From: Patescibacteria group bacterium
GTDB lineage: Bacteria; Patescibacteriota; Minisyncoccia; Phycocordibacterales; PALSA-1337
Direction: 5' to 3'
DNA length: 64,000 nucleotides
NCBI GenBank assembly: GCA_018971685.1
Contig: JAGXAG010000002.1
Span: forward strand, 66,276 to 130,275
The notes under the pieces were generated by a model that searched no databases, was not told the origin of the DNA, and worked only from the letters and a program-made list of their open reading frames with translations. Both the position numbers and the translations under genes were made by a program. Each line of letters begins with the position of its first letter. Positions within the stretch are counted from its first letter, which is position 1. Below, in pieces: positions 1-64,000 of this stretch.

Positions 1-90
1 CCGCCCCGGCGAAGTGTTTCCATCTTATCGCTTCGCTCGATGCGGGGAACACTTGTCGCCGGCTCGACGGTCGCCGCCCTGGCGACGTCT
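1..90. repeat. GC-rich palindromic repeat-family copy A, lying inside the topA reading frame
   Basis: Hairpins CCGGCGAAGTGTT / AACACTTGTCGCCGG and GTCGCC-GCCCT-GGCGAC. The core TCGCTTCGCTCG...AACACTT...CTCGACGGTCGCCGC recurs at 48843-48900 and 38070-38090. Confidence 0.5.
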
Positions 91-450: not shown

Positions 451-523
451 CCGCCCATAGCTCAGCCGGTAGAGCACTCGCCTCTTAAGCGATTGGTCGT
501 TGGTTCAAATCCAACTGGGCGGA
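451..523 (+). tRNA. tRNA-Lys (anticodon CTT)
   Basis: Cloverleaf folded by hand: acceptor CCGCCCA/TGGGCGG, D-arm GCTC..GAGC, anticodon loop CTCTTAA, T-arm GTTGG-TTCAAAT-CCAAC, discriminator A. CCA is not encoded. Confidence 0.85.
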
Positions 524-533
524 CATGGGATGA

Positions 534-641
534 GTTTACAGTTTACAATGAAAAGTTATTAGTGGAATTAATAATTATTAATTGATAGTTAACTATAAGC
601 TTGTCACTTAAATTAATAACTTTTCATTGTAAACTGTAAAC
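534..641. repeat. Nested palindrome: perfect 28-bp inverted repeats at 534-561 and 614-641, flanking an 18-bp palindrome (566-583, AATTAATAATTATTAATT) and a 12-bp palindrome (585-596, ATAGTTAACTAT)
   Basis: The reverse complement of 534-561 (GTTTACAGTTTACAATGAAAAGTTATTA) equals 614-641 exactly. The element lies between tRNA-Lys and tRNA-Leu. Confidence 0.8.
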
Positions 642-650
642 TTGTAACAC

Positions 651-732
651 GCCGGGGTGGCGAAATTGGTAGACGCACTTGGCTTAGGACCAAGCGGAGT
701 GATCCATGGAGGTTCGAGTCCTCTCCCCGGCA
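651..732 (+). tRNA. tRNA-Leu (anticodon TAG), long variable arm
   Basis: Acceptor GCCGGGG/CCCCGGC, D-loop AAATTGGTAGA, anticodon stem CTTGG/CCAAG with loop CTTAGGA, T-loop TTCGAGT, discriminator A. Confidence 0.85.
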
Positions 733-810
733 CAAAAGTGCAAAAAACGAAAAATTGCCCCTTTCCGGAGATTCCGAATTTTTCAGACTTTTGTAAGGTT
801 CGAACTTCGT

Positions 811-2112
811 TCAGGAATCGGCACCCAAAAAGATAGGATAGTCTTGTATCCTCGTTGTTTCTTTCGGCTTTACGCTGTGGAACCAATAGAAATACAGCGC
901 GGCATTCATAGCCATAAAGGCCGCGCTCGCAAAGAACGGCAATTCGAGTTCACCCATGCTTATCCAAATCCCGGAGATTGCAGGCGATACCGCCGAAGGG
1001 ATCCGTCTGGCCACGCCCGATATGCCTGCTGTCGTTCCGCGAAGGTCGGCATCGACGATTCCCATCGTGTACGCCTGTCTGACAGGCATAGCCCCCATCG
1101 CGCCGGCCATTCGGAGTATCACGAAAACCGCGGCAAGGCCGAAGCCGGGCATGACCGGAATGAGCGCGGTACAAATAACGCCGAACACTCGCGAGGCTGT
1201 GATGACTTTGATATCGCCGAAACGCCTTGCCATGTGCGCCATCCAAAGCGACGAGAATGACGCGAGCACCGAACTCGCGCCAATGACTGGTCCAATTATC
1301 ACCGGCGACACGCTGAATCGCAAATAAAGAAGATACGGGAGGATGCCCCCGACGAAGCCTATCCCAAAACCGTTGACCATTCCCGCTACAGAGATCTTCC
1401 AGATCATGTGGACACTCTCCTTTCTGCTCATCAATTTCTTTTCTGAATTATGGACGCCCGCCTTATGCCTGTCGACGGTCTCCTTGATCGGCCACAGAAG
1501 AAAAAATGTAACAATTCCCACAATAGTGACTCCGAAGAACAGCGGCCGGTAGGAAATTATGAGGGGCGAAGCGTAGACGCTCCGTATCATTTCCGGCAGG
1601 CCGGCAAGCAACGTGCCGAGCGCCATCGCGAATGTCCCGACCGCGCTGTTGATGCTGAATACCATGTTCCGGTTATCAAGCGTTGTTTTTTCGGAGAGGA
1701 GCGCCACCTCCGCCGGGGCGAATGGTCCCGCCTGGCCGCCCGCTCCTCCGCCGCGTCCGAGCCCGCCGAGCGCGCTCACGGCGATCAGAACGAATGGCAC
1801 CGAGGTGAAACTGAAGACAATCCCGGAAAGCGCGAGAAGCACGGAATAGGCGAGCAGGAACGGCTTTCTGCCGTACCGGTCGCTCGCGATACCGGTCGTA
1901 AGCGTAAGCAACGCGCTCACAGCACTGCCGATTCCGAGCGTGAGCCCGATGAGCCATGGCGAAAAGCCGATCTGCGCGAGATAGATGGCGAATACTACCA
2001 GAATATATCCCTGCACCAGACTCCGGAGTCCTCGAACAACGACCAAGCGCCGAAGGTCTTTTGTGGGAAGCAGCTCACGAAACCGGCCCATGAGGTTTTT
2101 CATGATTCGCAT
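811..2112 (-). CDS. MFS transporter
   Basis: 433-aa ORF with ~12 hydrophobic segments and the MFS signature GIASDRYGRKP. A GC-rich Gly-rich segment (GGLGRGGGAGGQAG) sits in the central loop. Confidence 0.8.
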   Translation of the reverse strand: MRIMKNLMGRFRELLPTKDLRRLVVVRGLRSLVQGYILVVFAIYLAQIGFSPWLIGLTLGIGSAVSALLTLTTGIASDRYGRKPFLLAYSVLLALSGIVFSFTSVPFVLIAVSALGGLGRGGGAGGQAGPFAPAEVALLSEKTTLDNRNMVFSINSAVGTFAMALGTLLAGLPEMIRSVYASPLIISYRPLFFGVTIVGIVTFFLLWPIKETVDRHKAGVHNSEKKLMSRKESVHMIWKISVAGMVNGFGIGFVGGILPYLLYLRFSVSPVIIGPVIGASSVLASFSSLWMAHMARRFGDIKVITASRVFGVICTALIPVMPGFGLAAVFVILRMAGAMGAMPVRQAYTMGIVDADLRGTTAGISGVARRIPSAVSPAISGIWISMGELELPFFASAAFMAMNAALYFYWFHSVKPKETTRIQDYPIFLGADS

Positions 2113-2255
2113 GGATATTCCGACATTGGATTGATGATTATTATTTGCATATATCTGTCGACTGCTCTTTCTTAATTAATTAATTATACCAAAGAACGCG
2201 GGTTGACATACTTTTCTCTAAAGAATATGGAAACCATTAGCGCATAAGTACCATT

Positions 2256-2284
2256 TGTTGAATCGTCAATAAGCAAGGTACAAT
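2256..2284 (+). promoter_or_regulatory. Putative sigma70-type promoter (-35 TGTTGA/TTGTTG, -10 TACAAT at 2279-2284) directly upstream of the GTG start at 2291, implying a leaderless transcript
   Basis: Hexamers read from the sequence with 17-18 nt spacing. There is no RBS. Confidence 0.3.
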
Positions 2285-2290
2285 GACCGT

Positions 2291-2866
2291 GTGAAAATAG
2301 ACTCATCAGTCTTATTCCTAAAAGCATCACTCGAGAATTTTTGGACGATTGGTAGTGTGGTGCCAAGCTCGTCATATCTGGCAAAGAAGATGGCGATGCC
2401 CATAGCAAGCAAGCCGAAAATGGTCGTTGTTGAGCTCGGCGCCGGCACCGGCGCAGTGACGAGATGTTTGCTCAAAGTTTTGCCGAGTGACGCCAGATTG
2501 TTCTCTTTGGAATTGAATGCGACATTGGCTGACCGCTTGTCGAGAGATATCAGCGACAAGCGCCTAGAATTGATAGTCGAAAACGCTTGCAACCTGGAGA
2601 GTGTTCTAAAAGAAAGGGAAGTAAGCAAAGCTGATTACATAATTTCCGGATTGCCGCTCGGAAGCATTCAGGAAGATGGCAGGCAAGAAATATATCGAAA
2701 TATTCACGCCTGCCTCGAGCCCGGCGGCCTCTATATCCAGTTTCAATATTTTATGGCAAACTTTATCGAGATCAAGAAACATTTCAAGGTCTGCAAAGTC
2801 GCCTTCGAATGGCGCAACTTTCCGCCGGCGTTCATATACAGTTGCCGATTGCGCTCCGGACGATAA
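2291..2866 (+). CDS. Class I SAM-dependent methyltransferase, PmtA-like (phospholipid N-methyltransferase family)
   Basis: Motifs IGSVVPSS, VVELGAGTGAVT (SAM-binding glycine loop), IISGLPL and GGLYIQFQY match the PmtA-like family. The start codon is GTG. Confidence 0.65.
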   Translation: MKIDSSVLFLKASLENFWTIGSVVPSSSYLAKKMAMPIASKPKMVVVELGAGTGAVTRCLLKVLPSDARLFSLELNATLADRLSRDISDKRLELIVENACNLESVLKEREVSKADYIISGLPLGSIQEDGRQEIYRNIHACLEPGGLYIQFQYFMANFIEIKKHFKVCKVAFEWRNFPPAFIYSCRLRSGR

Positions 2867-2915
2867 AAATATAGAATCTGATAGGTCCTTGAATTGAAAC
2901 GCGAATTGAAAAAAC

Positions 2916-2989
2916 GGCCTAGTGGCGAAGTCGGTCAACGCGGCGGTCTGCAAAACCGCTATGCGCCGGTTCGATCCCGGCCTAGGCCT
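2916..2989 (+). tRNA. tRNA-Cys (anticodon GCA)
   Basis: Acceptor GGCCTAG/CTAGGCC, anticodon stem GCGGT/ACCGC with loop CTGCAAA, T-arm GCCGG-TTCGATC-CCGGC, discriminator T. Confidence 0.8.
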
Positions 2990-2994
2990 CATTT

Positions 2995-3085
2995 GCCCGG
3001 GTGGCGGAATTGGTAGACGCCACAGACTTAAAATCTGTTGATCCTTTGTTGGGTCGTGCCGGTTCGATTCCGGCCCCGGGCACCA
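2995..3085 (+). tRNA. tRNA-Leu (anticodon TAA), long variable arm, 3' CCA encoded
   Basis: Acceptor GCCCGGG/CCCGGGC, D-loop AATTGGTAGA, anticodon stem ACAGA/TCTGT with loop CTTAAAA, T-arm GCCGG-TTCGATT-CCGGC, discriminator A, then CCA (3083-3085). Confidence 0.85.
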
Positions 3086-9285: not shown

Positions 9286-10668
9286 TCACTGTGCCGCCTC
9301 GAAATCGCCGAATTCGCCCTTGTCGATAGACATGAAAGTCGTTTTCTTGGAATCAAAGAACAATTTTACTGATCCGGTCGGGCCATTACGGTGCTTTTCG
9401 ATCAAGATTTCCGCCTCTTCTTTTTTGCCGCCCATGTCCTGATCGGCTTCGCGGTGAATAAACATGACCACATCGGCGTCTTGCTCGATCGAACCGGAAT
9501 CGCGCAAGTCGGAAAGCCGCGGCTTGCCGCCGCGCTGTTCCACAGCGCGCGACAGTTGAGAGAGTGCCAGCACGGGCACCTCCAATTCGCGTGCCAAATT
9601 CTTCAGAGAGCGGGATATTTCCGTGACCTGTTGGACCATATTGTCGGAACTGCGCGTCTGAGTCGGCAACATCAATTGCAGATAGTCGACGACAATGAGT
9701 CCGAGCCCTTTGTCATTCTTGAGACGCCTGGCGACGGCGCGCATCTTCAGGATGTTATTGCCCGGCGCGTCGTCGATGAAAATCGGCGCCTGCGACAAGC
9801 GCGAGATCGCTTCGCCGATAGCCTTGAAATCGTTCTCGACCGAAAGGTTGTGGCCAGTGCGTATTTTCCATGAATCGACTTGCGATTCGGCGGCAAGCAT
9901 GCGGTCGACCAGTTGTTGCGAGCTCATTTCGAGCGAAAATATGGCAACCGGCACCTTGTGATTGACCGACGCCTTGCGCGCAATGTCCAGAGCGAGTGAA
10001 GTCTTTCCTACCGAAGGCCGCGCCGCCAATATAATCAAGTCAGATTTTTGGAAACCGGACAATTTGTTGTCCAGTTCCATAAACCCGGTGGGTACGCCGC
10101 GCAACTCATTCTTGGTTTTATGGAGATGATCAAGGCGTTCCCACGCTTCATCAAGGGTGTCTTTTAATGCTATGAATTTGCGCGAGCCTGTTTTATTGGT
10201 TACCTCGTAGAGAGCCTTTTCGGCCTTTTCCAGAATGTCGTGTAATTCCAACTCTTCGTCGTAACCGAGCGAGTTGATCGATTCGGCGGCGCGGATAAGG
10301 TCACGCATTACATGCTTGGTCTCTACGATCTCTGCATAATTGTGTGCATTTGCCGAAGACGGGACTATATTTATCAATTCGGTCAAATACGCCATACCTC
10401 CGGCGTCTTCAAGCAAGCCTTTTTCTTTTAGGCGCGCCGAGACTGATAAGAGGTCGATGGGTATAGCTTTGCCGTGAAGCTCAAAAAGCACTGTCCATAC
10501 GGCGCGATTTTGGTTGGAATAGAAAGACCGCTCGCTGACAATATCGACGATTTCATGCATGGTTTCCGGGTTCATCAGCGCGGAACCGAGCAGAGCCTTT
10601 TCGGCGTCAATGGAGTTGGGCGGAATCTTCAGGTCCTTGGCTTTCAGGAATGGAGAAACGGGTGACAT
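9286..10668 (-). CDS. dnaB: Replicative DNA helicase DnaB
   Basis: An N-terminal DnaB domain, Walker A ARPSVGKTSLAL, and the DnaB signature SQLSRAVEQR...SDLRDSGSIEQDAD. Confidence 0.9.
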   Translation of the reverse strand: MSPVSPFLKAKDLKIPPNSIDAEKALLGSALMNPETMHEIVDIVSERSFYSNQNRAVWTVLFELHGKAIPIDLLSVSARLKEKGLLEDAGGMAYLTELINIVPSSANAHNYAEIVETKHVMRDLIRAAESINSLGYDEELELHDILEKAEKALYEVTNKTGSRKFIALKDTLDEAWERLDHLHKTKNELRGVPTGFMELDNKLSGFQKSDLIILAARPSVGKTSLALDIARKASVNHKVPVAIFSLEMSSQQLVDRMLAAESQVDSWKIRTGHNLSVENDFKAIGEAISRLSQAPIFIDDAPGNNILKMRAVARRLKNDKGLGLIVVDYLQLMLPTQTRSSDNMVQQVTEISRSLKNLARELEVPVLALSQLSRAVEQRGGKPRLSDLRDSGSIEQDADVVMFIHREADQDMGGKKEEAEILIEKHRNGPTGSVKLFFDSKKTTFMSIDKGEFGDFEAAQ

Positions 10669-53668: not shown

Positions 53669-53738
53669 TATTTTCTGAAATTATGTCCAGTGAAAGACCG
53701 TCCCGATGCATATCGGAACGGTCTTTGCCGTGTGAACC

Positions 53739-54443
53739 ATGATTCGTGTATTATTAGTTTTAATGAAAATCGCCGACCAATTGACCAAACTGAACCACCA
53801 CGCGTACTGTATTGCCGGCAATGATCTGGCAGCCGAGGAGATTGTCAACGCCTTGGCGAAACTGCACGGCATAGAGGCAAAAAGCAACCCCGATTTTGCC
53901 GTCGAAACATACGAGACTTTCACCATTTCCGACGCGCGCAGACTGAAAGATTCCTCTAACATAAAACCCGTCGATTCATCCGGTAAAAAAATCTTCATTC
54001 TGACCTTGGACAGCATTACGACCGAGGCGCAAAACGCGCTCTTGAAATTGCTCGAGGAGCCCGCCGAATACGCGCACTTCTTCCTGATCGTGCCTTCGGC
54101 GTATTTATTACTGCCCACAGTCAAGTCCCGCCTTTTTTTCCTTGAATGGGAACGCGGCAACCTTAATGCCGTTTCGAAAAAAGAGGCCGAGGCGTTCTTG
54201 AAGCTCGGTCTTTCCAAGAAACTGGAGTTCATTAAAAAACTGACCGATGACATTTCCAAAGAGAGAAAAACCAAACGCGCCGCCGTCGATTTCCTCAACG
54301 CCGTCGAAGCTGTCGTTTACAAAGAAAAAGGAGTCAAAACGGGCCGGAAGACGCTCGAATCAATTCAGTTGGCCAGAAAATATTTAAACGACAGGGCACC
54401 TTCGGTGAAGATGCTTCTGGAGCTTGTGACGCTGTCGTTATAA
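53739..54443 (+). CDS. holB: DNA polymerase III delta-prime subunit-like (clamp-loader AAA+ with a degenerate P-loop)
   Basis: NALLKLLEEP and LPTVKSRL (SRC-like) motifs at a size typical of HolB. Confidence 0.55.
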   Translation: MIRVLLVLMKIADQLTKLNHHAYCIAGNDLAAEEIVNALAKLHGIEAKSNPDFAVETYETFTISDARRLKDSSNIKPVDSSGKKIFILTLDSITTEAQNALLKLLEEPAEYAHFFLIVPSAYLLLPTVKSRLFFLEWERGNLNAVSKKEAEAFLKLGLSKKLEFIKKLTDDISKERKTKRAAVDFLNAVEAVVYKEKGVKTGRKTLESIQLARKYLNDRAPSVKMLLELVTLSL

Positions 54444-54453
54444 AGAAAATAAA

Positions 54454-54540
54454 TTGACCGCCAGAGACTCAGCAAACGCTGTTTGTTCTCTAGCGGTCGA
54501 GCGGGCCGTCGGACTTAATTCAAATGAGTTTTGGCGGTCT
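54454..54540. ncRNA. Candidate structured element or small RNA: the outer stem GACCGCCA...TGGCGGTC encloses imperfect hairpins
   Basis: 8-bp closing helix (54454-61 / 54533-40) with internal GACCGCCAGAGAC / GTTCTCTAGCGGTC pairing. No sRNA family motif was recognised. Confidence 0.2.
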
Positions 54541-54682
54541 TCATAGTCTATAGCAATGATCCACTTGGCAGCCGGTACTTTCGTACCTATCAAACTCCAA
54601 GACTTTTCCAAGATCATCTGACCACCAGAATACCAGAACACACTTTTTTGTCAAGCACAAATGCGGTTTTCCAATCATTAAA

Positions 54683-54707
54683 AAGGAAAAAGTGGCTTTA
54701 TTAAGCC
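54683..54707 (-). terminator. Rho-independent terminator downstream of mreB (GTGGCTT-TATTA-AAGCCAC, then a U-tract on the minus strand)
   Basis: A perfect 7-bp stem at 54690-54707 with an A5 run on the plus strand at 54685-89. Confidence 0.5.
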
Positions 54708-54798
54708 ACTATATGGAAAACAAGATAAAATCAATCCGAGTAAAATTCAAGGCAAAACTGGGAATAAAACCAAAATCTGGCGACAGGGGTGGTGAAAA

Positions 54799-55815
54799 TC
54801 ACCGGCGCTTGGAAATCACCGCCTTTTTGTAGGTGTCGAGGTGTTCGAGCGCGATGCCGGTACCCTTGGCGACACAGAGAAGCGGTTCGTCAGCAACTTG
54901 CGCCTTGACGCCCGTGCGGCGGAAGACCAATTCCGCCATATTGCGCAACAAGGAAGAGCCGCCCGTCAGAATAATCCCTTGATCAATAATGTCCGCCGCC
55001 AATTCCGGCGGCGTCTCTTGCAAAACATCCTTTATCGCCGTGATCATGTCGCGCAACTCTTTTGAAATCGCCTTGACGATTTCATTCGTTTTAACCTCCA
55101 CCGACCGCGGCAAACCGGTGATAAAATCACGACCTTTCACCAGCATCGCCAATTCTTGATCCAGAGGGATCGCCGAGCCGATCTTCGTCTTGATGTCTTC
55201 CGCCATATGGTCCCCGATCGCCAGATTGAACGACTTTTTCACGAAGTCCGCAATCGCCGCGTCAAGCTTATTACCGGCGCATTTGACCGAAGTCGAGGCC
55301 ACAATACCGCCCAGAGAAATCACCGCCACATCCGTCGTGCCGCCGCCGATATCGACGATCATATGCCCGCGCGCTTCGTGGATGGGAATGCCTGCGCCGA
55401 TCGCCGCCAAAATAGGCTCCTTGACGACATAGGCATTCTTGGCGCCGGCGCGCACGGCGGCTTCGATGACCGCGCGGCGTTCCGTCGAAGTTATGCCGGC
55501 CGGCACCGACACCATCACATCCGGCTTGAAAAAATTCCACCGGCCCATCGCTTTGTCGATAAAGTGCCGAAGCATCGCTTCGGTCACGCGATAGTCGGCA
55601 ATAACGCCGTCCCTCATGGGCCTGTAAGCAACGATCGTGTCCGGTGTGCGGCCGACCATTTCTTTGGCCTCGTCGCCGACCGAAAGCACTTTTTTGTCCG
55701 TTTCGGAAACCGCCACCACCGACGGTTCGTTCATGACGATGCCCTTGCCGGGCACGAAAACGACGGTATTGGCGGTACCGAGATCGATGCCCAATTTCGG
55801 AGAAAATACGCTCAT
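54799..55815 (-). CDS. mreB: Rod shape-determining protein MreB
   Basis: IDLGTANTVVFV, DIGGGTTDVAVI and the actin-fold phosphate/adenosine motifs. Confidence 0.9.
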   Translation of the reverse strand: MSVFSPKLGIDLGTANTVVFVPGKGIVMNEPSVVAVSETDKKVLSVGDEAKEMVGRTPDTIVAYRPMRDGVIADYRVTEAMLRHFIDKAMGRWNFFKPDVMVSVPAGITSTERRAVIEAAVRAGAKNAYVVKEPILAAIGAGIPIHEARGHMIVDIGGGTTDVAVISLGGIVASTSVKCAGNKLDAAIADFVKKSFNLAIGDHMAEDIKTKIGSAIPLDQELAMLVKGRDFITGLPRSVEVKTNEIVKAISKELRDMITAIKDVLQETPPELAADIIDQGIILTGGSSLLRNMAELVFRRTGVKAQVADEPLLCVAKGTGIALEHLDTYKKAVISKRR

Positions 55816-55852
55816 GTCCGTATGTTTGAATATAGCACAAAGATAACCGTTG

Positions 55853-57154
55853 TCACTTCCTCTCGATATTCGCTCCGATGGCTTTCAATTTTTCTTCTAA
55901 TCTTTCATACCCCCTGTCTAAGAGCCGCACATTATTCACGGTAAACTTTCCCTTTCCGACGAGCGCCGCGAGCACTATCGCGAAGCCCGCGCGGATATCG
56001 TGTACGCGCAATTCTTGGCCGCTGGGCAACTCGCTGAGCGCCGTCGGGCCTTTTATCACAATCTCGCGCGGATTTACAACTGCGATGTCGGCACCAGCCT
56101 GTTTCAAATCTTCAACATACTTGAATCGTCCATCATAAATCGTCTCGAGTACTGAACTTTTACCGGCAGCTTGCGTCAGAAATACCGTCATCGGTGCCTG
56201 TAAATCGGTCGGAAAACCTGGATATTCGTGAGTCCGCAGATCATTCACGGCCTTGAATGAAACTCCTTTTTCGGTTACGCTCCTTACCAACAGGTTGGAC
56301 TTGTCTATTTCGATGGATACGCCGGCATTATGCAATACATTTATTGCCGCTTCCATATGTTTCGGCTCACAACCTTCGATTTTCAACTCCTCGGCGCACA
56401 ACGCTCCCAGAATAAGAAAACTGCCGGATTCGATCCTGTCCGGAATGGTTACATAAGGCTTGATAGATTTTAACAGCTTGCCGGCAGTGCCTTCTATCTC
56501 AATAGTTGTTGTGCCGGCGCCTTTTATGTTCGCACCGCACGAATTCAACCATTCGGCAATACTGGCGATTTCCGGCTCCATGGCGCAATTTTTTAGCACC
56601 GTCCTGCCTTTCGCCAAAACCGCCGCCATCATCAATGTCTCGGTACCGCCGACCGTCTGCTTGTCAAAAAACATTTCCGCGCCCTTCAAGCCTTTTTCAG
56701 CCTGAATGTCGTACAGGCCGTTCTCCGCGACCGTGGCTCTCATGCTCCTGTATCCGTCCAAAAACAAATCGATCGGCCGCGCCCCTATCACGCAACCGCC
56801 CGGCGCCGGAAACGAAACTCTGCCGAATCTCGCCAATAAAGGCCCGGTCAGAACCACTGACGCCCGCATGCTTCCGGCCAATTCCGCGTCGATGTCCGTG
56901 TTGTTGATTTTGCTCGCGTCGATTGTTAAAGTTTCCGATTTTTCGACCCTTGCTCCCAGCTTGCTCAATATTTCACTCATCGTTTTGATATCCTCGGTCT
57001 CGGGCACATTGGTCAATTCCACCGCGCCGTCGAAAAGCGCGGCCGCGGCCATCGCTTTCAAGGCCGCGTTCTTCGCCCCCTGAATTTTGACCGATCCTTT
57101 CAGTTTTTTTTCGCCCTCGAGGCCTTCAATGATGAATTTGTCTTTTTTATCCAT
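55853..57154 (-). CDS. murA: UDP-N-acetylglucosamine 1-carboxyvinyltransferase
   Basis: MDKKDKFIIEGLEGEKKLKGSVKIQGAKNAALKAM aligns to the MurA N-terminus. The internal ATG at complement 57152-57154 is preferred over the 42-codon upstream extension. Confidence 0.85.
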   Translation of the reverse strand: MDKKDKFIIEGLEGEKKLKGSVKIQGAKNAALKAMAAAALFDGAVELTNVPETEDIKTMSEILSKLGARVEKSETLTIDASKINNTDIDAELAGSMRASVVLTGPLLARFGRVSFPAPGGCVIGARPIDLFLDGYRSMRATVAENGLYDIQAEKGLKGAEMFFDKQTVGGTETLMMAAVLAKGRTVLKNCAMEPEIASIAEWLNSCGANIKGAGTTTIEIEGTAGKLLKSIKPYVTIPDRIESGSFLILGALCAEELKIEGCEPKHMEAAINVLHNAGVSIEIDKSNLLVRSVTEKGVSFKAVNDLRTHEYPGFPTDLQAPMTVFLTQAAGKSSVLETIYDGRFKYVEDLKQAGADIAVVNPREIVIKGPTALSELPSGQELRVHDIRAGFAIVLAALVGKGKFTVNNVRLLDRGYERLEEKLKAIGANIERK

Positions 57155-57215
57155 AAGTACGGCAATTGTAGCTTGATTCTCGATAATTCTCAACGGATGT
57201 TGTATAAATAGAGCA

Positions 57216-59138
57216 ATGAACTTAATAACAGTCATCCCGATCACTCGTTCAAAAGTGGCCACGAACCTATCGTATTTCACCGCCGCCGAAATACCATTAG
57301 GCGCGCTTGTATCGGTGCCATTGAGATCGAAAACTGTTCACGCCATCGTAACTGAAATAAGACCAGCCGAAGATTTGAAAAGCGAAATCAGGAACGCGCC
57401 GTTCCAGTTCCGCAAATTAGGCAAAGTCAAAGCGGCGGCCTTTTTCCCCGCCTCGTTCATCCGCTCTTGCAACGAGCTTGCCGACTACTACGCAACCACC
57501 ACGGGCGCCGTCATGCGCGGGCTCGTTTCCAATAACATACTTGAAAATTCGGGCAAGATCGCGCCCCCTTTGCCGGCACAGGCCGAGATGTTCGGGGGCT
57601 TGGAGACAGGCCGCGCCACGGCAGACAGAGACCGCGTGTTCGTTGTACAGGGCGATGAGAGCGATCGTATGAGCTCATGGAGAAGCCTTATCCGCCAAGA
57701 ATTCGCGCGCAAGAAATCTGTAGCCGCATACGCACCCACTACCGAAGACGCCAAGAATATTTTTTCCATTTTGGAAAAAGGCATAGAAGAATACATTTTC
57801 CTATTGCATTCCGGCCTGACAAAAAAACAAGTCTTGGACACATGGACCAGAATTGCCGAGACCAAACACCCAACACTTGTAGTAGCCACCGGCTCATTCT
57901 CGGTATTGCCAAGAAACGATATCGAAACGATCATAATCGAACGGGAAAACGGCCGCGGTTGGATATCAGAAAGAGCTCCGTATATGGATATGCGCCGCGC
58001 GCTAGAAACCGTCGCCAGAAACGAAAAGAAAAACATATATATGGCCGATGATCTGCTCGGAGTCGAGACTTTGCATCGCCTCGATGAAGAAAAAGCTGTG
58101 GCCGGTTCCCCTTTCAAATGGAGATCGATCTCGAATGCTCGAGACAGCTTGGTCGATATGCGCGCCAATAAATCCGCCGGAAATGATTTCCGCGTGATAT
58201 CTCCGGAACTCGAAGATCTGGTGAGAAAAGGCCGGGAAGAAAATGTCCACTTATTTATTTTGTCCACCCGGCGCGGTCTTGCTCCGGTTACGGTTTGCGA
58301 TGATTGCGAAACCGTCGTGTCTTGCAAGAATTGTTCCGCGCCGGTGGTGCTGCATACCTCGGCCAAAACTGGCAAAAATTTCTTTTTGTGTCACAAATGC
58401 GGCGAAAAACGCGACACTGAGGAGAGCTGTACTGTCTGCGGCGGCTGGCGATTGACGCCGATCGGCATAGGCGTCGAGAGAGTCACCGCAGAACTCAAGG
58501 CAAAATTCCCACATATGGAAACATTCAGTATCGATGCCGATTCGGTCAAGAATAAAAAACACGCCGAGGAAATCATGGAAAGGTGGCGGGCCCGTCCGGG
58601 ATCGATTTTGGTCGGCACCGAAACGGCGCTGCTTCATTTGTCGGAAAAGGTGGAATATTCGGCAGTAGCTTCGCTTGATTCACTGTTTGCTCTGCCTGAT
58701 TTTCGCATCCAGGAAAGGATTATGTACATGCTTATCCGTTTGCGGTCTCGTACAGAGCGGATGGTCTTGGTTCAGTCGCGCCGATCAGAAGAAAAGGTCT
58801 TTGAATACGGCCTCAAGGGAAATCTTTCAGACTTTTATCGCGGCACGCTTTCGGAACGAAAGTCTTTCGACTATCCGCCGTTCCGCACTCTTATAAAAAT
58901 AACGATCGAAGGCAAGAAAGATCCGATCGCAAAACTGATGTCGGACATACGGGAAACACTCGAGCCGTTCGAAGTCGAGGTTTTTCCGGCTTTTACGGCA
59001 ACGGTGCGCGGCAATTCCATCATTCATGGATTGATTAGGATCGAGACAGACCTTTGGCCTAAACCGGAACTGATCGCAAAATTGCGTTCTTTACCTCCGG
59101 AAGTAAGCGTGAAAGTGGATCCGGAAAGTTTACTCTAG
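57216..59138 (+). CDS. priA: Primosomal protein N' (PriA) homologue with degenerate helicase Walker A/B motifs
   Basis: N-terminal 3'-DNA-binding/winged-helix domain, the Cys-rich zinc-binding region (CDDCETVVSCKNCSAPVVLH...CHKCGEK...CTVCGG) and the C-terminal domain. The expected GxTGSGKT reads GDESDRMS and DEEH reads EREN. Confidence 0.75.
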   Translation: MNLITVIPITRSKVATNLSYFTAAEIPLGALVSVPLRSKTVHAIVTEIRPAEDLKSEIRNAPFQFRKLGKVKAAAFFPASFIRSCNELADYYATTTGAVMRGLVSNNILENSGKIAPPLPAQAEMFGGLETGRATADRDRVFVVQGDESDRMSSWRSLIRQEFARKKSVAAYAPTTEDAKNIFSILEKGIEEYIFLLHSGLTKKQVLDTWTRIAETKHPTLVVATGSFSVLPRNDIETIIIERENGRGWISERAPYMDMRRALETVARNEKKNIYMADDLLGVETLHRLDEEKAVAGSPFKWRSISNARDSLVDMRANKSAGNDFRVISPELEDLVRKGREENVHLFILSTRRGLAPVTVCDDCETVVSCKNCSAPVVLHTSAKTGKNFFLCHKCGEKRDTEESCTVCGGWRLTPIGIGVERVTAELKAKFPHMETFSIDADSVKNKKHAEEIMERWRARPGSILVGTETALLHLSEKVEYSAVASLDSLFALPDFRIQERIMYMLIRLRSRTERMVLVQSRRSEEKVFEYGLKGNLSDFYRGTLSERKSFDYPPFRTLIKITIEGKKDPIAKLMSDIRETLEPFEVEVFPAFTATVRGNSIIHGLIRIETDLWPKPELIAKLRSLPPEVSVKVDPESLL

Positions 59139-59175
59139 TTTTCAAGATCAATAAATTGTGTTATTGTCCAAAGAC

Positions 59176-59709
59176 ATGGAGATCGCACAGCGCGACAATC
59201 CGATTCTGCGCGGCAAAGCCAAGGCAATACCTTTGGATGATATCGGCTCTCCAAAAATTCAGGGCGTAATTGAAAAAATGAAGCTGGCCGTACATTCGCA
59301 AAAAGACGGCATAGCGATCGCGGCGCCGCAGATCGGCGAACTTTTGCAAATATTCGTGGTAAACGGCGAACTTATGAAAGCGGCTGATAAAAACTTCAAA
59401 GGCGGCGGCGCGGATTTGGTCTTCATCAACCCAAAAATCGTAAAGTTGTCTAAAGACAGGAGAGAGATGGAAGAGGGTTGTCTGTCGGTGCGCTGGCTTT
59501 ACGGCAAAGTCAAGCGCTCGACGCGGGCGTCTCTGGCGGCTTATGACGAAAAAGGAAACAAGATCAATCGCGGCGCATCGGGGCTTTTGGCGCAGATATT
59601 CCAGCATGAATGCGACCATTTGGAAGGCATTTTATTCACGGACAAGGCGAAAAAGGTTTGGGAAATGGCGCCGGAGGAAATTGAAGGGCTGAAAAACAGC
59701 GTCACATGA
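59176..59709 (+). CDS. def: Peptide deformylase
   Basis: GIAIAAPQIG, EGCLSV and QHECDHLEG motifs. The ATG at 59176 is preferred over the GTG at 59158. Confidence 0.85.
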   Translation: MEIAQRDNPILRGKAKAIPLDDIGSPKIQGVIEKMKLAVHSQKDGIAIAAPQIGELLQIFVVNGELMKAADKNFKGGGADLVFINPKIVKLSKDRREMEEGCLSVRWLYGKVKRSTRASLAAYDEKGNKINRGASGLLAQIFQHECDHLEGILFTDKAKKVWEMAPEEIEGLKNSVT

Positions 59710-60668
59710 AAGATGCGATTTGTTTTTCGAAAACCGTGTATTACGATGAAATGAGCAATGAAAATATAAAATTTGCGTTTTTCGGATCTTCGAGATTTTC
59801 TGTAATTGTGCTCGATGAATTGGAAATGGCCGGATTTGTACCAGAATGCGTAGTCACCGTGCCAGACAAGCCGACCGGAAGGAAAATGAAAATTACGCCG
59901 ACGGAAGTGAAAAAATGGGCGCAAAAGAGGAACATAAAAATTTATGCTCCGGAAAGATTGAGCATCGCAAAAGACGGCAGCCGACCCAATGGCAAAGCGG
60001 CGCAAAATGCGGCCGGTGAATTTTCCGAAGAATTGGCAAAAGAAAATTGCGAGGTTTTCATCGTGGCGTCTTACGGAAAAATCATCCCAAGCAACATCAT
60101 AAAAATTCCGCCCAGAAGGACGCTGAATGTGCATCCTTCCCTTTTGCCGAAATACCGCGGCGCGTCGCCTTTGCAATCGGTAATAATCGCTGATGACAAA
60201 AATACCGGCGTAACCGTTATTGAAATCGACGAGCAAATGGACCATGGACCGATCGTGGCACAAGAGAAAATATCGATAAATGAATGGCTACCATACGAAG
60301 AATTCGAAGAGAAAATGGCGCGCGCCGGCGGGGTATTGCTGTCAAGAATATTGCCCGACTGGATCGCCGGCAATATTGCCGCGGTCGAGCAAGATCATTT
60401 CGCGGCCACTTATACGAAAAAGATAGCCAAAGAAGACGGATTGATCGACTTGAACGGCGATCCTTATCTCAATTTCAGGAAAATCCAAGCTTACCATGAA
60501 TGGCCTCAAACCTATTTCTTCGCGGAAAAAGGCGACAGAAAGATCCGCGTCAAAGTGGCGCGCGCTTCATTCAAGGACGGAAAACTGTTTATCGAGGCGG
60601 TAGTGCCTGAAGGCCGGAAAGAGATGCCTTATTGTAGTTTTCGCCAATCGTTTGGATCCGGTTATTGA
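59706..60668 (+). CDS. fmt: Methionyl-tRNA formyltransferase
   Basis: NVHPSLLPKYRGASPLQ (SLLP motif), the formyl-transferase N-domain and a C-terminal domain. The ATGA overlap with the def stop suggests translational coupling; the true start may be the internal M at 59751. Confidence 0.85.
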   Translation: MKDAICFSKTVYYDEMSNENIKFAFFGSSRFSVIVLDELEMAGFVPECVVTVPDKPTGRKMKITPTEVKKWAQKRNIKIYAPERLSIAKDGSRPNGKAAQNAAGEFSEELAKENCEVFIVASYGKIIPSNIIKIPPRRTLNVHPSLLPKYRGASPLQSVIIADDKNTGVTVIEIDEQMDHGPIVAQEKISINEWLPYEEFEEKMARAGGVLLSRILPDWIAGNIAAVEQDHFAATYTKKIAKEDGLIDLNGDPYLNFRKIQAYHEWPQTYFFAEKGDRKIRVKVARASFKDGKLFIEAVVPEGRKEMPYCSFRQSFGSGY

Positions 60669-60856
60669 GATAATAAATGACAACCCAGAAACACAACACG
60701 CCCATAAAGGCTATACAGATCCATTGATTGACCGGCTCTTTTATCGCCGCTAAGCTGAAGAAAGACTCTTTTGGCATTGAATTACGGAAAAATAAAAAAC
60801 AGATGTTAAAAAGTGAAGTTATTCAATAAAATCTTACACTCATACATTTTAACTTT

Positions 60857-61225
60857 TTATCTCCACGGCCACAAGCCTTTCACCATGGATTTGACCCTGG
60901 CACCACCGCGGCGGATGAGGGAGATGCGTTTCTCTTTTTTTGCTTTCAATTCGCGTAATATTTCGTCGCGCGCGTCGTCTATGGCGGCGTAAAGATCCGC
61001 TTTGTTGGAAACGGCATAAAGGTTTTTGCCTGAACCGACGATGTGTATTTCCGCCTTGAATATGTCGCCTTTCTGATGATGTTCAGTCGTTTTGGCGAGT
61101 TCCATGTCGCACCGTATCGATGGATCTCGGCCGAGCATGGCGGTTATTTTCTTTAGTCTTTTATTGGCATAATCCGATATTGCCGGAGACAAAGCGATAT
61201 TTGTGCTCTTTATGTTTGTGTTCAT
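60857..61225 (-). CDS. hpf: Ribosome hibernation promoting factor / RaiA family
   Basis: MNTNIKSTNIALSPAISDYANKRLKKI ... DLYAAIDDARDEILRELKAKKEK matches HPF/YfiA. Confidence 0.8.
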   Translation of the reverse strand: MNTNIKSTNIALSPAISDYANKRLKKITAMLGRDPSIRCDMELAKTTEHHQKGDIFKAEIHIVGSGKNLYAVSNKADLYAAIDDARDEILRELKAKKEKRISLIRRGGARVKSMVKGLWPWR

Positions 61226-61267
61226 GGTTTTATATTAAATTATAATTCGTAAATATTCCTAAATCTG

Positions 61268-61834
61268 TCATTTTCCATACTTTCCCACCAGCTCTCCGTC
61301 CGCCAAAATATGTCCAGCCATCACTTTATACACTTCGTCTTTTGTCGCACCTTCCGATAGCGATAACATTATATCAAGAGCGTAAACTTTGAAATAGTAC
61401 CGGTGAATGCCACTTGGCGGACACGGTCCGACATAAGTCAGATTGTCACCGCTGCCTTTGCCGTGAATGCCCGCCGGCTCTTCGTCCTCGCCTATGGCAG
61501 CTGTTTTCGGGTTAATATTGAAGACAATCCAGTGGTCCCAAGTACCCATGGGCGCATCGGGATCTTCCATAATAAGTGTTAGAGACTTGGCACTATCAGG
61601 CACGCCGGTAATAGACAGCGGTGGGCTGATGTTTTTGCCTTTGCAAGTATACACTTCCGGAATCGATCCGCCGTTATGGAAAGCGGCGCTGGTTATTTTT
61701 AATGCGGTAGACATTGTTCTTATAACACTGACATTGTCTGAGTTACTTAAATATACGAGCCATGTGCACGCCGCGATGCACAAAATAAAAACTCCGGACA
61801 CAATCGCGGCAGTTTTTGCGGTTTGAATGCTCAT
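61268..61834 (-). CDS. YbhB/YbcL-family PEBP (Raf kinase inhibitor-like) protein, membrane-anchored
   Basis: EDPDAP, GTWDHWIVFNI and YVGPCPPSGIHRYYFKVYALD are PEBP signatures. N-terminal TM helix. Confidence 0.75.
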   Translation of the reverse strand: MSIQTAKTAAIVSGVFILCIAACTWLVYLSNSDNVSVIRTMSTALKITSAAFHNGGSIPEVYTCKGKNISPPLSITGVPDSAKSLTLIMEDPDAPMGTWDHWIVFNINPKTAAIGEDEEPAGIHGKGSGDNLTYVGPCPPSGIHRYYFKVYALDIMLSLSEGATKDEVYKVMAGHILADGELVGKYGK

Positions 61835-61881
61835 GCATATTATGATACATTAGTTTGCATAGTCCATTGAGGAAATAATAT

Positions 61882-61953
61882 TCCGGAGTAGCTCAGCGGT
61901 AGAGCAGTCGCCTGTTAAGCGATTGGTCGCTGGTTCGAATCCAGCCTCCGGAG
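61882..61953 (+). tRNA. tRNA-Asn (anticodon GTT)
   Basis: Acceptor TCCGGAG/CTCCGGA, anticodon stem GTCGC/GCGAT with loop CTGTTAA, T-arm GCTGG-TTCGAAT-CCAGC, discriminator G. Confidence 0.85.
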
Positions 61954-63582
61954 CCCTAGTGACGAAACAGGCACAGAAAGCCTGTTTTGTTTTGTCAGCA
62001 TTGGCTTTTCGGAGGTTCGAGCGCGCTCGATTTCTCTTTCGATGGCATCGCGCGCTTTTATGAGGCTCAAAAAGAAAGAACTGTACGTAATCGTCAGTTT
62101 TTTGCCGGAAATGATGAGGTTCGAGCCGAGGCATGCCAATATCGCTCTTTTGATGTTTTCGTCCCCGTTTTCAAACCAAATATGGGCGTAGCAGGCAAAG
62201 TCAAAGGTTGCCTCGGAAAGCTCGGCCCATTGTTCTACAGCTTTGTTTTTGACCTTCAATTCGTCCTCTAGGATGCCTTTGCGTTTGAGCAGGTCTGATT
62301 TCAACGTCTGGTATTCCTGGTCGCTTATAAGACTTCGATCTTTATTCCCAGGTGCGGTGAAGTTGAGGGTTAATGACTGAAGCTGTTGGGTTACTTCCTC
62401 GCACTCTTTGTGCTTGGTCTTGAGCGCTATGGAATCGCTCTCAGCCTCATTCTTGCGTATCTCGTGAATATGTTTGACCGCCCAGTCGCGGTATTCTTCG
62501 GAAATCTTTATGTCTTTTAGTATGCCTTTGATCTGTAGGTGTAGATTCTTAACCTCAAGGTGCCTCTCGGTGCACGGCGTGTCATATTTCTTTTTCGTGC
62601 AATTGTAGTAAATGTAATGATGGACATTGCCATTCTTGCAATGTTTTTCCTTGGCCTGCGCCGTGATCCGGCAACCGCAGGTGCCGCACCTCATAAGGCC
62701 AGTAAAGGCGAATAGTCTTTCCTGTGACAGCTTGTGCGGACGAGGCTGGCTAGTCCGGCCCATGATCTTTTGGACCTTGTCGAATTCGTCTTTGGTGATC
62801 ATCGGCTCATGTGCTCCCTTATGCCAGTTACCGCTATGCAAAGGAAATTCAAACCAGCCGTAATAAAAGGGATTGCTTAAAAGCGCGTAGACGCCGGACC
62901 GGGACAGATGATGGCCGCCAATAGCACGGCGTGGCACGGTCTTCAGATTCAATTCTTTCCTTGAAATATTCCAGATCTGAACGATTGAATAGTTGCCGGT
63001 AAGGATAAGGTCAAAGAGTCTGCGAACCAACGGGAATCGCTCGGGATCTGTTTCAAGCGTCTTATAACCCTTCTCTTTGTTGGGAGTATTCAGATATCCG
63101 ATCGGCGCGCCGCTTGGCATCCAGCCGTCGCGGACCTTCTTTTGCAAACCTCTTTTTACGTTGACCGAAAGGTCCCGGATGAATTGATTAGCCATGCCCA
63201 GTTCGACCTGCATCATGAGCACATTGTCTGTCGGATAATATGTTCGGCCGAAGGTGACGATTTGAGAAATGGCACTCTGCTGTAGCATCCAGCTTATCTG
63301 ACCACCATCAACCGGATTGCGTGCCAAGCGGTCCAACTTCCAGCACAAGATTCCGTTCGCCTCACCCTTATAGATTCGTTCAAGCATGGAGTTGAAAACC
63401 TTTCTGCCCGGCTTCTTGGCCGACTGTGATTCTTCGAGAATATCCACGACTTTCAAGCCTTGGTCCTTGGCAATCTTCAAAAGCTCGTCTTTCTGGGCAT
63501 CAATAGACGCCGCCTGACGATCTTCCGCCTCGCTCGATTTTCGGGCGTAGAGGATGTATTTAGTTGCTTGTGTGTTATTCAT
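61915..63582 (-). CDS. Large serine recombinase (resolvase/invertase N-domain, recombinase domain, zinc ribbon), presumably an integrase
   Basis: YARKSSEAEDRQAASIDAQ (catalytic Ser region), a recombinase domain, and the Cys cluster CGTCGC...C. The last 12 codons (LRRLDSNQRPIA) are encoded antisense to the 3' half of tRNA-Asn. Confidence 0.85.
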   Translation of the reverse strand: MNNTQATKYILYARKSSEAEDRQAASIDAQKDELLKIAKDQGLKVVDILEESQSAKKPGRKVFNSMLERIYKGEANGILCWKLDRLARNPVDGGQISWMLQQSAISQIVTFGRTYYPTDNVLMMQVELGMANQFIRDLSVNVKRGLQKKVRDGWMPSGAPIGYLNTPNKEKGYKTLETDPERFPLVRRLFDLILTGNYSIVQIWNISRKELNLKTVPRRAIGGHHLSRSGVYALLSNPFYYGWFEFPLHSGNWHKGAHEPMITKDEFDKVQKIMGRTSQPRPHKLSQERLFAFTGLMRCGTCGCRITAQAKEKHCKNGNVHHYIYYNCTKKKYDTPCTERHLEVKNLHLQIKGILKDIKISEEYRDWAVKHIHEIRKNEAESDSIALKTKHKECEEVTQQLQSLTLNFTAPGNKDRSLISDQEYQTLKSDLLKRKGILEDELKVKNKAVEQWAELSEATFDFACYAHIWFENGDENIKRAILACLGSNLIISGKKLTITYSSFFLSLIKARDAIEREIERARTSEKPMLTKQNRLSVPVSSLGLRRLDSNQRPIA

Positions 63583-63717
63583 AAAATTTACCTTTACGTA
63601 TGGATTCTGTGCTACCCTTGACTATATACTATTATGGTGATATAATGGAGCGGTAGACAGTCAGGTTAGCCGTTCCGGCCTAACCCCTTCAAAACCAAAC
63701 CAAGAAAGGATTAGCAC

Positions 63718-64000
63718 ATGAAAAAGAGTATCCTGTTCGGATTGATGCTGGTTGGCATCGCCGTCCTTATGGCCGGTTGCGCTGCGGGACACAATCCCTC
63801 GGTTCACACGGCTAACGAAGTCGGCAACGTCGCCGGTTTCTGGCGTGGCCTTTGGCACGGCATGATCTGCCCAATCACGTTTATCATCTCGCTGTTTTCG
63901 GATAACGTAAGCATTTACGAAATCCACAACAATGGCGGATGGTATAACTTCGGCTTCCTGCTCGGTGCCGGCTCTGCCCTTGGCGGTAGCGGCGCGAGCG
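63718..64000 (+). CDS. Putative lipoprotein with a glycine-zipper tail (partial; runs off the window end)
   Basis: MKKSILFGLMLVGIAVLMAGC (lipobox LMAGC) ... GFLLGAGSALGGSGAS. Higher GC than its surroundings. Not in the ORF track because the stop lies outside the window. Confidence 0.4.
   Translation, partial: MKKSILFGLMLVGIAVLMAGCAAGHNPSVHTANEVGNVAGFWRGLWHGMICPITFIISLFSDNVSIYEIHNNGGWYNFGFLLGAGSALGGSGAS

Follow-up and report, generated by a model that had tools for sequence, protein, structure and literature searches.

We analyzed a 64,000-nt stretch of the genome of a Patescibacteria group bacterium (hereafter, the window; positions 66,276 to 130,275 of contig JAGXAG010000002.1, assembly GCA_018971685.1), near the end of which the gene of a large serine recombinase (LSR; int) runs into a tRNA-Asn(GTT) gene on the opposite strand. 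We interpret positions 61951–64000 as the tRNA-proximal end (left attachment site, attL) of a small integrative element that was probably integrated by its LSR at the extreme 3′ end of tRNA-Asn(GTT), with the element's own attachment site (attP) lying within int. Based on comparison of this junction with those of relatives, we put the probability of this reading at roughly 85%. The family of elements concerned appears to be widespread in Patescibacteria (Paceibacteria/Parcubacteria).

The tRNA-Asn gene and the overlapping recombinase gene

The tRNA-Asn(GTT) gene is intact and lies on the forward strand at 61882–61953 (61881–61956 by ARAGORN; Rfam RF00005 tRNA body, 72.9 bits). Its acceptor stem is a perfect 7 bp (TCCGGAG/CTCCGGA), its discriminator base is G73, and CCA is not encoded in the sequence. 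On the reverse strand, int is an intact open reading frame (ORF) of 555 amino acids (61915–63582), whose C-terminus reads ...SSLGLRRLDSNQRPIA (also given as ...LGLRRLDSNQRPIA). A first-pass annotation, made from the sequence alone, had placed the last 12 codons and the stop of this gene antisense to the tRNA, and this description was exact: the final 12 codons, LRRLDSNQRPIA, together with the stop make up 39 nt (61915–61953) that are the reverse complement of tRNA-Asn from nucleotide 35 to discriminator G73. The TAA stop lies in the anticodon loop, as had also been stated, and is the complement of TTA at 61915–61917, comprising anticodon bases 35–36 and A37. Residues 1–544 of Int are derived from the element and the recombination core, whereas the host tRNA, read in antisense, supplies the stop and the 11 residues before it (RRLDSNQRPIA; 61915–61950).

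The initial assignment of this protein to the LSRs held up against Pfam domains, structural matches, and a structure model. Int contains the domains Resolvase (PF00239, E 3e-22, residues 10–153), Recombinase (PF07508), and Zn_ribbon_recom (PF13408), and the catalytic motif YARKSS near its N-terminus; an alignment of 90 sequences shows YARKSS...Q to be invariant (Y13, R15, K16, and S17 in the numbering of the homolog P0006). The best PHROG match is phrog_95, a phage integrase family, and a PDB search returned the serine integrases of SPbeta and A118. The AlphaFold2 (AF2) model of full-length P0006, built with the 90-sequence alignment, had a mean predicted local distance difference test score (pLDDT) of 83 and showed the canonical LSR fold to about residue 520, with strands at 296–327 followed by long helices at 361–408 and 420–471. 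On every sequence-level criterion that could be tested, then, the window recombinase looks like a bona fide LSR. A compositional anomaly of int was considered and rejected, as its GC content (0.487) is host-like (window, 0.476).

We note that the exact-protein look-up of Int returned no matching record because the public gene call, in an identical contig (L060, described below), is a fragment of only 295 amino acids (L060 8198–9085). The N-terminal catalytic half is unannotated there, though the ORF is intact at 555 amino acids (L060 8198–9865).

Recurrence of the junction among relatives

Two sets of relatives were compared. The protein set comprised the 120 best Int homologs (47%–88% identical), and the genome set comprised 53 loci with an int homolog (given below as L numbers), found by scanning species-representative genomes and mostly belonging to metagenome-assembled genomes (MAGs) of Patescibacteria. 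Few of the 120 homologs were named by source; those that were included Brennerbacteria, Zambryskibacteria, Yonathbacteria, and one Cloacimonetes.

The 120 best homologs are collinear as far as the motif S-[LW]-G/x-L and then part into three types of C-terminus. At least 53 have tails that are antisense to a T-loop ([DG]SN..., as in DSNQRPIA, DSNLRP.., DSNPRPIGY.., and GSNLGHPP), at least 21 more end within six residues past the junction motif, and about 10 have a conserved "native" tail, such as D[MI]VRDIGTFWK...PTEAEMAEYR. The same picture was seen in the DNA. Of the 53 loci, 34 show one conserved element end (...hairpin...GTCACTAGGGCTC) joined to a tRNA-Asn 3′ half specific to the host. Read in the sense of int, the gene end in close relatives is an A-rich/hairpin stretch...TCGTCACTAGGGCTC, which in these 34 runs straight into the reverse complement of the tRNA-Asn 3′ half. 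Acceptor and T-stem sequences vary by host, and the acceptor stems match each host's own 5′ strand. Across relatives, the tail past the junction ranges from LRR* or two residues to more than 15, a length set by the host tRNA sequence alone. With this junction repeated in 34 of the 53 loci, the overlap of int with the tRNA is a signature of the family and not a product of chance.

Conservation of int also differed from that of its surroundings. Int is 82%–87% identical to relatives, versus 46%–72% for flanking host proteins in the same loci, and this excess of conservation over the host flanks is the pattern expected of a horizontally moving gene. The host synteny of tRNA-Asn, PEBP, and HPF is common to the window and several relatives.

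Distant homologs (~41% identical) adjoin tRNA-His(GTG) genes (L047 11561–11635 and L058 1608–1683), which points to switches of target from one tRNA gene to another in the wider family. The MAGs carrying these tRNA-His homologs are one Dojkabacteria and one labelled Saccharibacteria. Outside Patescibacteria, homologs that were 39%–43% identical (L049, L050, L059 [Flavobacteriia], and L055 [Verrucomicrobiae]) had native-like tails (...VRTSIIDS, ...DDVRTYLQ) and no tRNA nearby.

ARAGORN finds 17 of the 34 junction tRNAs intact; a contig end truncates one more, and the other 16 are interrupted. The 16 interrupted tRNA-Asn(GTT) genes carry an insertion of 250–650 nt just after the anticodon TTA (position 36), which Rfam identified as a group I intron in three of three loci tested (52–92 bits). 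Genes split in this way were recorded in L003 (11678–12130), L010 (11645–11908), and L017 (11669–11945), and also in L007, L012, L016, L018–L021, L023, L024, L032, L034, L045, L046, and L052. ARAGORN misses these split genes, and the tRNA-Asn of the window is without an intron. The insert in L003 additionally contains an ORF bearing an HNH-like CxxCH motif.

The second junction and attachment-site anatomy

Searching with native tails (tblastn) recovered, from 14 loci, in-frame, stop-free tail remnants of 22–41 codons that lie upstream of int and share its strand. GCTC (variants ACTC, GCCC) precedes the remnant in all but two of these, and the sequence before it is nonconserved host sequence, AT-rich or hairpin-forming, that ends in GCTC. 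These remnants mark the right attachment site (attR). Both junctions could be mapped in 10 loci, giving element lengths of 7.1–11.1 kb. The int-tRNA junction of the window would then be the attL of a family whose attR junctions are mapped, in agreement with the first-pass view that it is the edge of an integrated element.

GCTC is the sole sequence common to attL, attR, and the hybrid junctions of int and native tail, and there are no long repeats. In the window, this recombination core is GAGC on the forward strand (61951–61954; GCTC on the int strand), consisting of tRNA G71, A72, and G73 and the first trailer base. The breakpoint was checked in one pair of contigs: L005 (1–2679; 2,679 nt) is 99.85% identical to L011 through GCTC, past which the two share 83% identity and carry unrelated cargo. 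A long direct repeat of the tRNA 3′ segment had been proposed as a way to find the far end of the element, with its absence counting as refutation. Relatives' attR shares only GCTC with the tRNA end, however, and because a serine recombinase leaves only a 4-bp core, the long-repeat test is unsuitable, and the absence of such a repeat would not refute integration.

In the P and P′ (element) arms, the inner motif TAGT is placed symmetrically around the TC of GCTC, and we therefore infer that GA (61951–61952) is the central dinucleotide. AACCT is the best-conserved outer motif, found at +16..20 in the tRNA (B) arm, within the T-loop/T-stem, and at +21..25 in the P arm. In serine integrases, the zinc-ribbon-domain (ZD) motif lies 5 bp nearer the center in the chromosomal site (attB) than in attP (Rutherford et al., PMC3783163). 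The 5-bp offset of AACCT between the B and P arms fits this shift rule (PMC3783163), making AACCT a candidate ZD motif and the tRNA-Asn gene of the window the putative B arm of attL. The P′ arm (L016–L040; window 61955–61975) reads GACGAAACC(T), with an AACCT-like motif about +14..18 from the center, a spacing that is neither P-type (+21..25) nor B-type (+16..20). This odd spacing may have to do with attL being reused as a target. Several of the B′ arms, on the host side of attR, are hairpin and T-run sequences.

Truncated copies resembling the tRNA-Asn 3′ end lie 100–250 nt beyond attR in L017 (4330–4560), L010 (4210–4390), and L041 (3640–3950). The copy in L017, GTCAAGTAATGGCTC followed by CGGAGACAGGATTCG, resembles a relic attB, and inverted T-loop-like repeats are also found there. 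These degenerate fragments are not the attR junction itself and may be traces of older integrations by other integrases. A convergent tRNA in the B′ flank was considered and rejected, being supported by neither ARAGORN nor Rfam.

Together, these junctions indicate that crossover takes place in the 4-bp core GAGC (tRNA nucleotides 71–73 and one trailer base). The P′ element arm is the 3′ end of int itself, so that attP lies inside int, and the P arm encodes the native tail of 22–41 amino acids in frame, which is left 7–11 kb away at attR after integration. Integration thus swaps the native tail for host tRNA antisense codons up to the first stop, here the TAA facing the anticodon loop. The gene for the tRNA stays intact, with G73 restored by the element, the core bases G71–A72 shared, and a probable new terminator hairpin supplied. 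Restoration of its end is exact, since GC follows GA in the B′ and P′ arms alike. The element would cycle via a circular form that makes full-length Int. An empty attB would be expected to read ...CCTCCGGAGC on the tRNA side and then continue into non-element sequence, and attP would be expected to consist of the int body ...CTAGGGCTC followed by native-tail sequence. Further elements would insert between the resident int and the tRNA, producing tandem arrays.

A conserved hairpin beside the tRNA

The P′ arm on the element side (CCTAGTGAC...; 61955–61996, forward strand) contains a 12-bp hairpin, with stems at 61961–61972 and 61980–61991, followed by a T-rich tract. The hairpin starts 6 nt past the core, inside the coding region of int (codons ...KQNRLSVPVSS), and in the sense of the tRNA it resembles an intrinsic terminator. 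In the window (61961–61991), its minimum free energy is -16.6 kcal/mol (z -3.09). Among 19 distinct family sequences, the stem is paired in 90.4% of cells, versus 44%–61% in slid controls, and 41 cells are compensatory (doubly changed), a number reached by 0 of 500 shuffles. The inner sequence takes at least eight forms, all of which preserve the stem, and the encoded peptide varies (KQNRLSVPV, RQNPTNCEV, QKWHHVPLL, and others). We read this hairpin as a probable element-borne replacement terminator for tRNA-Asn, with the original terminator displaced to attR.

The native tail of the recombinase

At hybrid junctions the native tail continues int in frame, and at attR it stands apart from the gene. 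Closely related native tails, including detached attR copies, had ratios of nonsynonymous to synonymous substitution (dN/dS) of 0.06–0.3, at a proportion of synonymous differences (pS) of 0.5–0.7. The purifying signal holds for codons 11–41, beyond any plausible attachment half-site. This pattern suggests that the native tail is a selected coding segment, and the tRNA-encoded residues (here RRLDSNQRPIA) appear to be a by-product of integration. As judged from the P0006 model, the swap probably affects an extension beyond the folded domains that is disordered.

Whether exchanging the tail regulates the integrase is a speculative idea, and we consider it doubtful. A broader version of it, which we also regard as tentative, is that these enzymes form one or more previously undescribed LSR clades, down to 25%–30% identity, dedicated to tRNA genes (mostly tRNA-Asn, with tRNA-His in distant members). 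In such clades, int would edit itself, with exchange of the tail switching the stability, activity, or directionality of Int, and attL would still be a target, so that defense islands accumulate in tandem at one tRNA in genome-reduced Patescibacteria. Integration would then remove the selected tail of 22–41 amino acids, and excision or the arrival of a second element would restore it.

Element content, cargo, and tandem arrays

Beside int, relatives share a conserved module consisting of an ORF of 89–91 amino acids and a protein of 236–330 amino acids with a weak match to the helix-turn-helix domain HTH_36; the gene of the latter protein overlaps the start of int. The remaining cargo is mostly restriction-modification or other defense genes and differs between loci that share host synteny. 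We found MvaI/BcnI and a methylase in L017, BstXI and a methylase in L003 and L008 (the latter also with an S24 peptidase), type I/IIG restriction-modification in L011 and L001, two methylases in L041, Fic and an AAA_13/SMC-like ATPase in L019, Fic, an EcoRI methylase, and GmrSD in L005, and a papain-like protease in L010. The cargo genes scanned were those of the delimited elements L008, L010, L011, L017, L019, and L041 and of L001, L003, and L005, with some ORFs unmatched or unscanned. Virion and packaging domains (capsid, tail, terminase) were absent from these genes; relaxase, type IV secretion system (T4SS), and conjugation domains did not turn up among them either, though no search was aimed at these. 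A scan of a viral contig collection with int returned no relative. Gene content therefore suggests that the elements are small integrative defense islands rather than prophages.

Several loci hold more than one element. In L026, L031, L037, and L054, int ends in non-tRNA sequence, and a tRNA-Asn gene lies 4.5–9.5 kb further on. A second LSR, 25%–29% identical, adjoins that tRNA-Asn in L026, L031, and L054, and in L031 this second ORF overlaps the tRNA. An LSR with 30% identity also lies just outside attR in L009. Incoming elements thus appear to target attL and come to lie between the tRNA and the int already in place, giving rise to tandem arrays, in which the inner int genes are fused to a neighbor's tail. 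At least two deeply diverged LSR clades seem to share the tRNA-Asn site.

Two contigs in which int is joined to a native tail, L005 and L006, were considered as free attP circles and rejected, as neither has a terminal overlap. L005 equals L011 only through the core and then enters a different element. Since comparable loci carry tRNA-Asn and a second LSR downstream, we read L005 and L006 as hybrids within tandem arrays.

The element of the window

In the window, int is followed by a divergently oriented gene across an intergenic region (63583–63717) that contains a strong sigma-70-like match at 63618–63646 on the forward strand (TTGACT-17-TATAAT, 11/12 and TG; a consensus match only), facing that gene. 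The gene itself (forward strand, 63718–64000, continuing to window-equivalent 64020) encodes a lipoprotein-like protein of 100 amino acids with a signal and lipobox (...LMAGC). At first pass, it had been described as higher in GC and as consistent with foreign cargo. The higher GC was confirmed (GC, 0.561; GC at third codon positions [GC3], 0.68; window, 0.476), placing it in the top 5% of 300-nt windows, but the difference is modest. Its homolog P0121 is 100% identical, and it matches PHROG 30702, to which that database assigns no function. The lipoprotein family is widespread, with 1408 homologs in Patescibacteria, Acidimicrobiia, and Anaerolineales, and a paralog (P0129, KGQ27_01995) is found elsewhere in the same genome.

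A second contig, L060 (GCA_028865255.1, JAGWKR010000009.1), is 100% identical to window positions 53718–64000 and extends 1.87 kb further. It contains the complete lipoprotein gene (10001–10303) and beyond it, on the int strand, a gene for a 337-amino-acid HTH_36-like protein (34%–37% identical to its counterparts in L001, L003, and L006), followed on the same strand by a 78-amino-acid ORF (65%–87% identical to the 89–91-amino-acid ORFs of L001 and L003). Searches of Pfam, PHROGs, and PDB returned only a subthreshold HTH_36 match for the former and nothing for the latter. As the lipoprotein gene lies between int and this family module, it falls inside the element, so the suggestion that it is cargo gains support from L060, and most of the element lies beyond the window, as had been anticipated. 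The HTH_36 and 78–91-amino-acid proteins may serve replication or regulation, perhaps directionality.

L060 ends about 300 nt past the 78-amino-acid gene (L060 11570–11866; window-equivalent 65287–65583), within the first 28 codons of a forward-strand ORF (MAKQHRVAPDLKEQIINRIKNDGVTVSQ) for which Pfam returned nothing. Assemblies may break at this point because of a repeat, for instance an insertion sequence. For the same organism, a Logan contig terminates in the tRNA D-arm.

Evidence against integration and alternative explanations

Several observations weigh against the interpretation of this locus as an element integrated by its own LSR. The attR of the window element is out of reach, as the identical contig stops 1.9 kb past the window, and a search for native tails in L001, L003, and L060 found no attR within reach. 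Metagenome and homolog searches revealed no unoccupied tRNA-Asn site in a close relative: an exact search for the 3′ end of the window tRNA in JGI metagenomes gave 0 matches, a search with the B′ flank of L010 returned only the occupied form (L061, 99.99% identical to L010), and in a search with PEBP homologs for an isogenic empty site the nearest non-self match was ~62% identical, so not a close relative. No circular (attP) molecule was found, and all contigs examined with int and a native tail fit inner members of tandem arrays, not free circles. At the attachment sites, host B′ arms have no conserved motif, which leaves recognition of the B′ half-site unaccounted for. A simple consensus scan for terminators did not list the P′ hairpin, probably because part of its T-tract pairs with an upstream A-tract. 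Lastly, the linker and native tail of the P0006 model (525–574) have pLDDT values below 50, and the model gives no structural support for a role of the tail. The case for mobility thus draws on junction anatomy, cargo variation, and contrasts in conservation, which together suggest it.

The alternative that survives best, though we consider it rather unlikely, is that the element integrated as proposed and is now an immobilized relic, disrupted or rearranged, with a truncated and nonfunctional Int and possibly a transposase at the contig end. Gene order does differ in the window, where the lipoprotein gene intervenes between int and the HTH_36 gene that overlaps the int start in relatives; the identical contig breaks off just past the module, where another ORF begins, and the public int call in that contig is only 295 amino acids long. 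However, the int ORF is intact at 555 amino acids and retains all LSR domains and YARKSS, the P′ arm and its hairpin are canonical, and the 78-amino-acid and HTH_36 ORFs are intact.

LSRs are classic integrases of phages and of ICEs (integrative and conjugative elements); the first-pass annotation had placed the window recombinase in such a role. The LSR class stands, and the best PHROG of Int is a phage integrase family; the far part of the window element, moreover, is unseen. The junction could then be the border of a temperate phage (prophage) or of a conjugative element, but the phage part of the proposal did not hold for relatives, whose ten delimited elements span only 7–11 kb. Their scanned cargo is restriction-modification, Fic/AAA, peptidase, or unknown genes with HTH_36, without virion, relaxase, or T4SS domains having turned up, and the viral contig collection contained no relative. 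We consider a phage or conjugative origin improbable, and clearly more so than the relic.

Least probable of all, and very unlikely, is chance read-through from a resident chromosomal LSR of the invertase or resolvase kind that sits beside a tRNA gene with no mobile element involved. In its favor, the 11 tRNA-encoded residues are arbitrary, tails of 2 to more than 15 residues follow the host tRNA, and int has a host-like GC content. Against it, the junction is repeated across 34 loci whose host tRNA alleles differ, there are attR junctions bearing tail remnants in frame, conservation of Int far exceeds that of the host flanks, and loci with shared host synteny carry different cargo.

Comparison with known systems

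The LSRs of A118/LI, SPbeta (SprA), phiC31, and Bxb1 share with the window recombinase the combination of resolvase, recombinase, and zinc ribbon with a long coiled coil. Phage LSRs also follow the same attachment-site logic, with a short core, imperfect inverted-repeat arms, a 5-bp shift of the outer motif, and no long repeats. The well-studied LSRs use protein-coding or intergenic sites, whereas the window family uses the 3′ end of a tRNA gene. Unlike them, it also has attP inside the int ORF, a P′ arm that is predicted to double as a tRNA terminator, a B′ half-site that is unconserved, and an attL that appears reusable as a target for tandem arrays.

In the integrases of Mx8 (IntP) and of the SSV type, attP likewise lies within int, and integration gives int a new 3′ end (PMC6070905; PMC4383910). 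The window family resembles Mx8 in that attP lies inside the int ORF and integration changes the C-terminus of Int, a likeness of mechanism and not of family. The attB of Mx8 also lies at a tRNA gene. The enzymes of Mx8 and SSV are tyrosine recombinases, with a different chemistry, longer segments of identity, and duplication of a tRNA fragment, whereas the window family has a serine recombinase and a 4-bp core, and, unlike in Mx8 and SSV, the segment it swaps is predicted by the model to be a short extension beyond the folded domains. Mycobacteriophage integration-dependent immunity, reportedly described by Broussard et al. in 2013, is said to involve a tyrosine integrase and an attP in the repressor gene, such that integration alters the C-terminus and behavior of the repressor. 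The parallel is an attP in a coding gene whose C-terminus changes on integration; in the window, that gene would be the integrase itself, and the evidence is from sequence only.

Islander islands and tycheposons are small, cargo-bearing, and site-specific at tRNA 3′ ends, with the tRNA restored and tandem arrangements (PMC4383910; bioRxiv 10.1101/2020.12.28.424599). The window family is similarly small, cargo-carrying, and tandem at a tRNA gene, and its cargo consists of defense genes. The hallmarks of Islander islands and tycheposons are a tyrosine integrase and a displaced tRNA fragment, neither of which is found in the window family: the only recombinase at the window junction belongs to the serine family, and in place of a displaced tRNA 3′ direct repeat the attR of relatives shares only GCTC with the tRNA. 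LSRs were present in 27 of 937 tycheposon-type elements (bioRxiv 10.1101/2020.12.28.424599), and according to a 2015 survey of Islander islands, no serine-family integrase was known to have a tRNA gene as its target (PMC4383910).

Our literature searches found no description of a tRNA-targeting serine-integrase family or of serine-integrase elements in Patescibacteria, in a library that is incomplete and with island databases that may hold unremarked cases. What appears to be new here is a group of tRNA-Asn-specific serine-integrase islands in Patescibacteria, with attP in int, a conserved tail that can be swapped, a probable terminator for the tRNA brought in by the element, and accretion in tandem. 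The window locus and about 50 relatives provide a clear counterexample to the 2015 statement, with attL, attR, and hybrid junctions resolved to the base pair. These elements will be missed by island finders that seek a displaced tRNA fragment or a tyrosine integrase, and gene callers mishandle int ORFs that overlap a tRNA. They may be a main vehicle for restriction-modification and other defense cargo in the tiny genomes of the candidate phyla radiation (CPR), with stacked islands at a single hotspot. For recombinase engineering, they offer natural serine integrases whose attB would be a universally conserved tRNA 3′ end, and they raise the question of whether swapping a disordered C-terminal tail can modulate a serine integrase.

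Other tRNA genes in the window

The other tRNA genes in the window (Lys-CTT, Leu-TAG, Cys-GCA, and Leu-TAA) are clustered at 451–3085. The same cluster directly adjoins tRNA-Asn in the relative L028 (4546–6077), and the two are 59 kb apart in the window.

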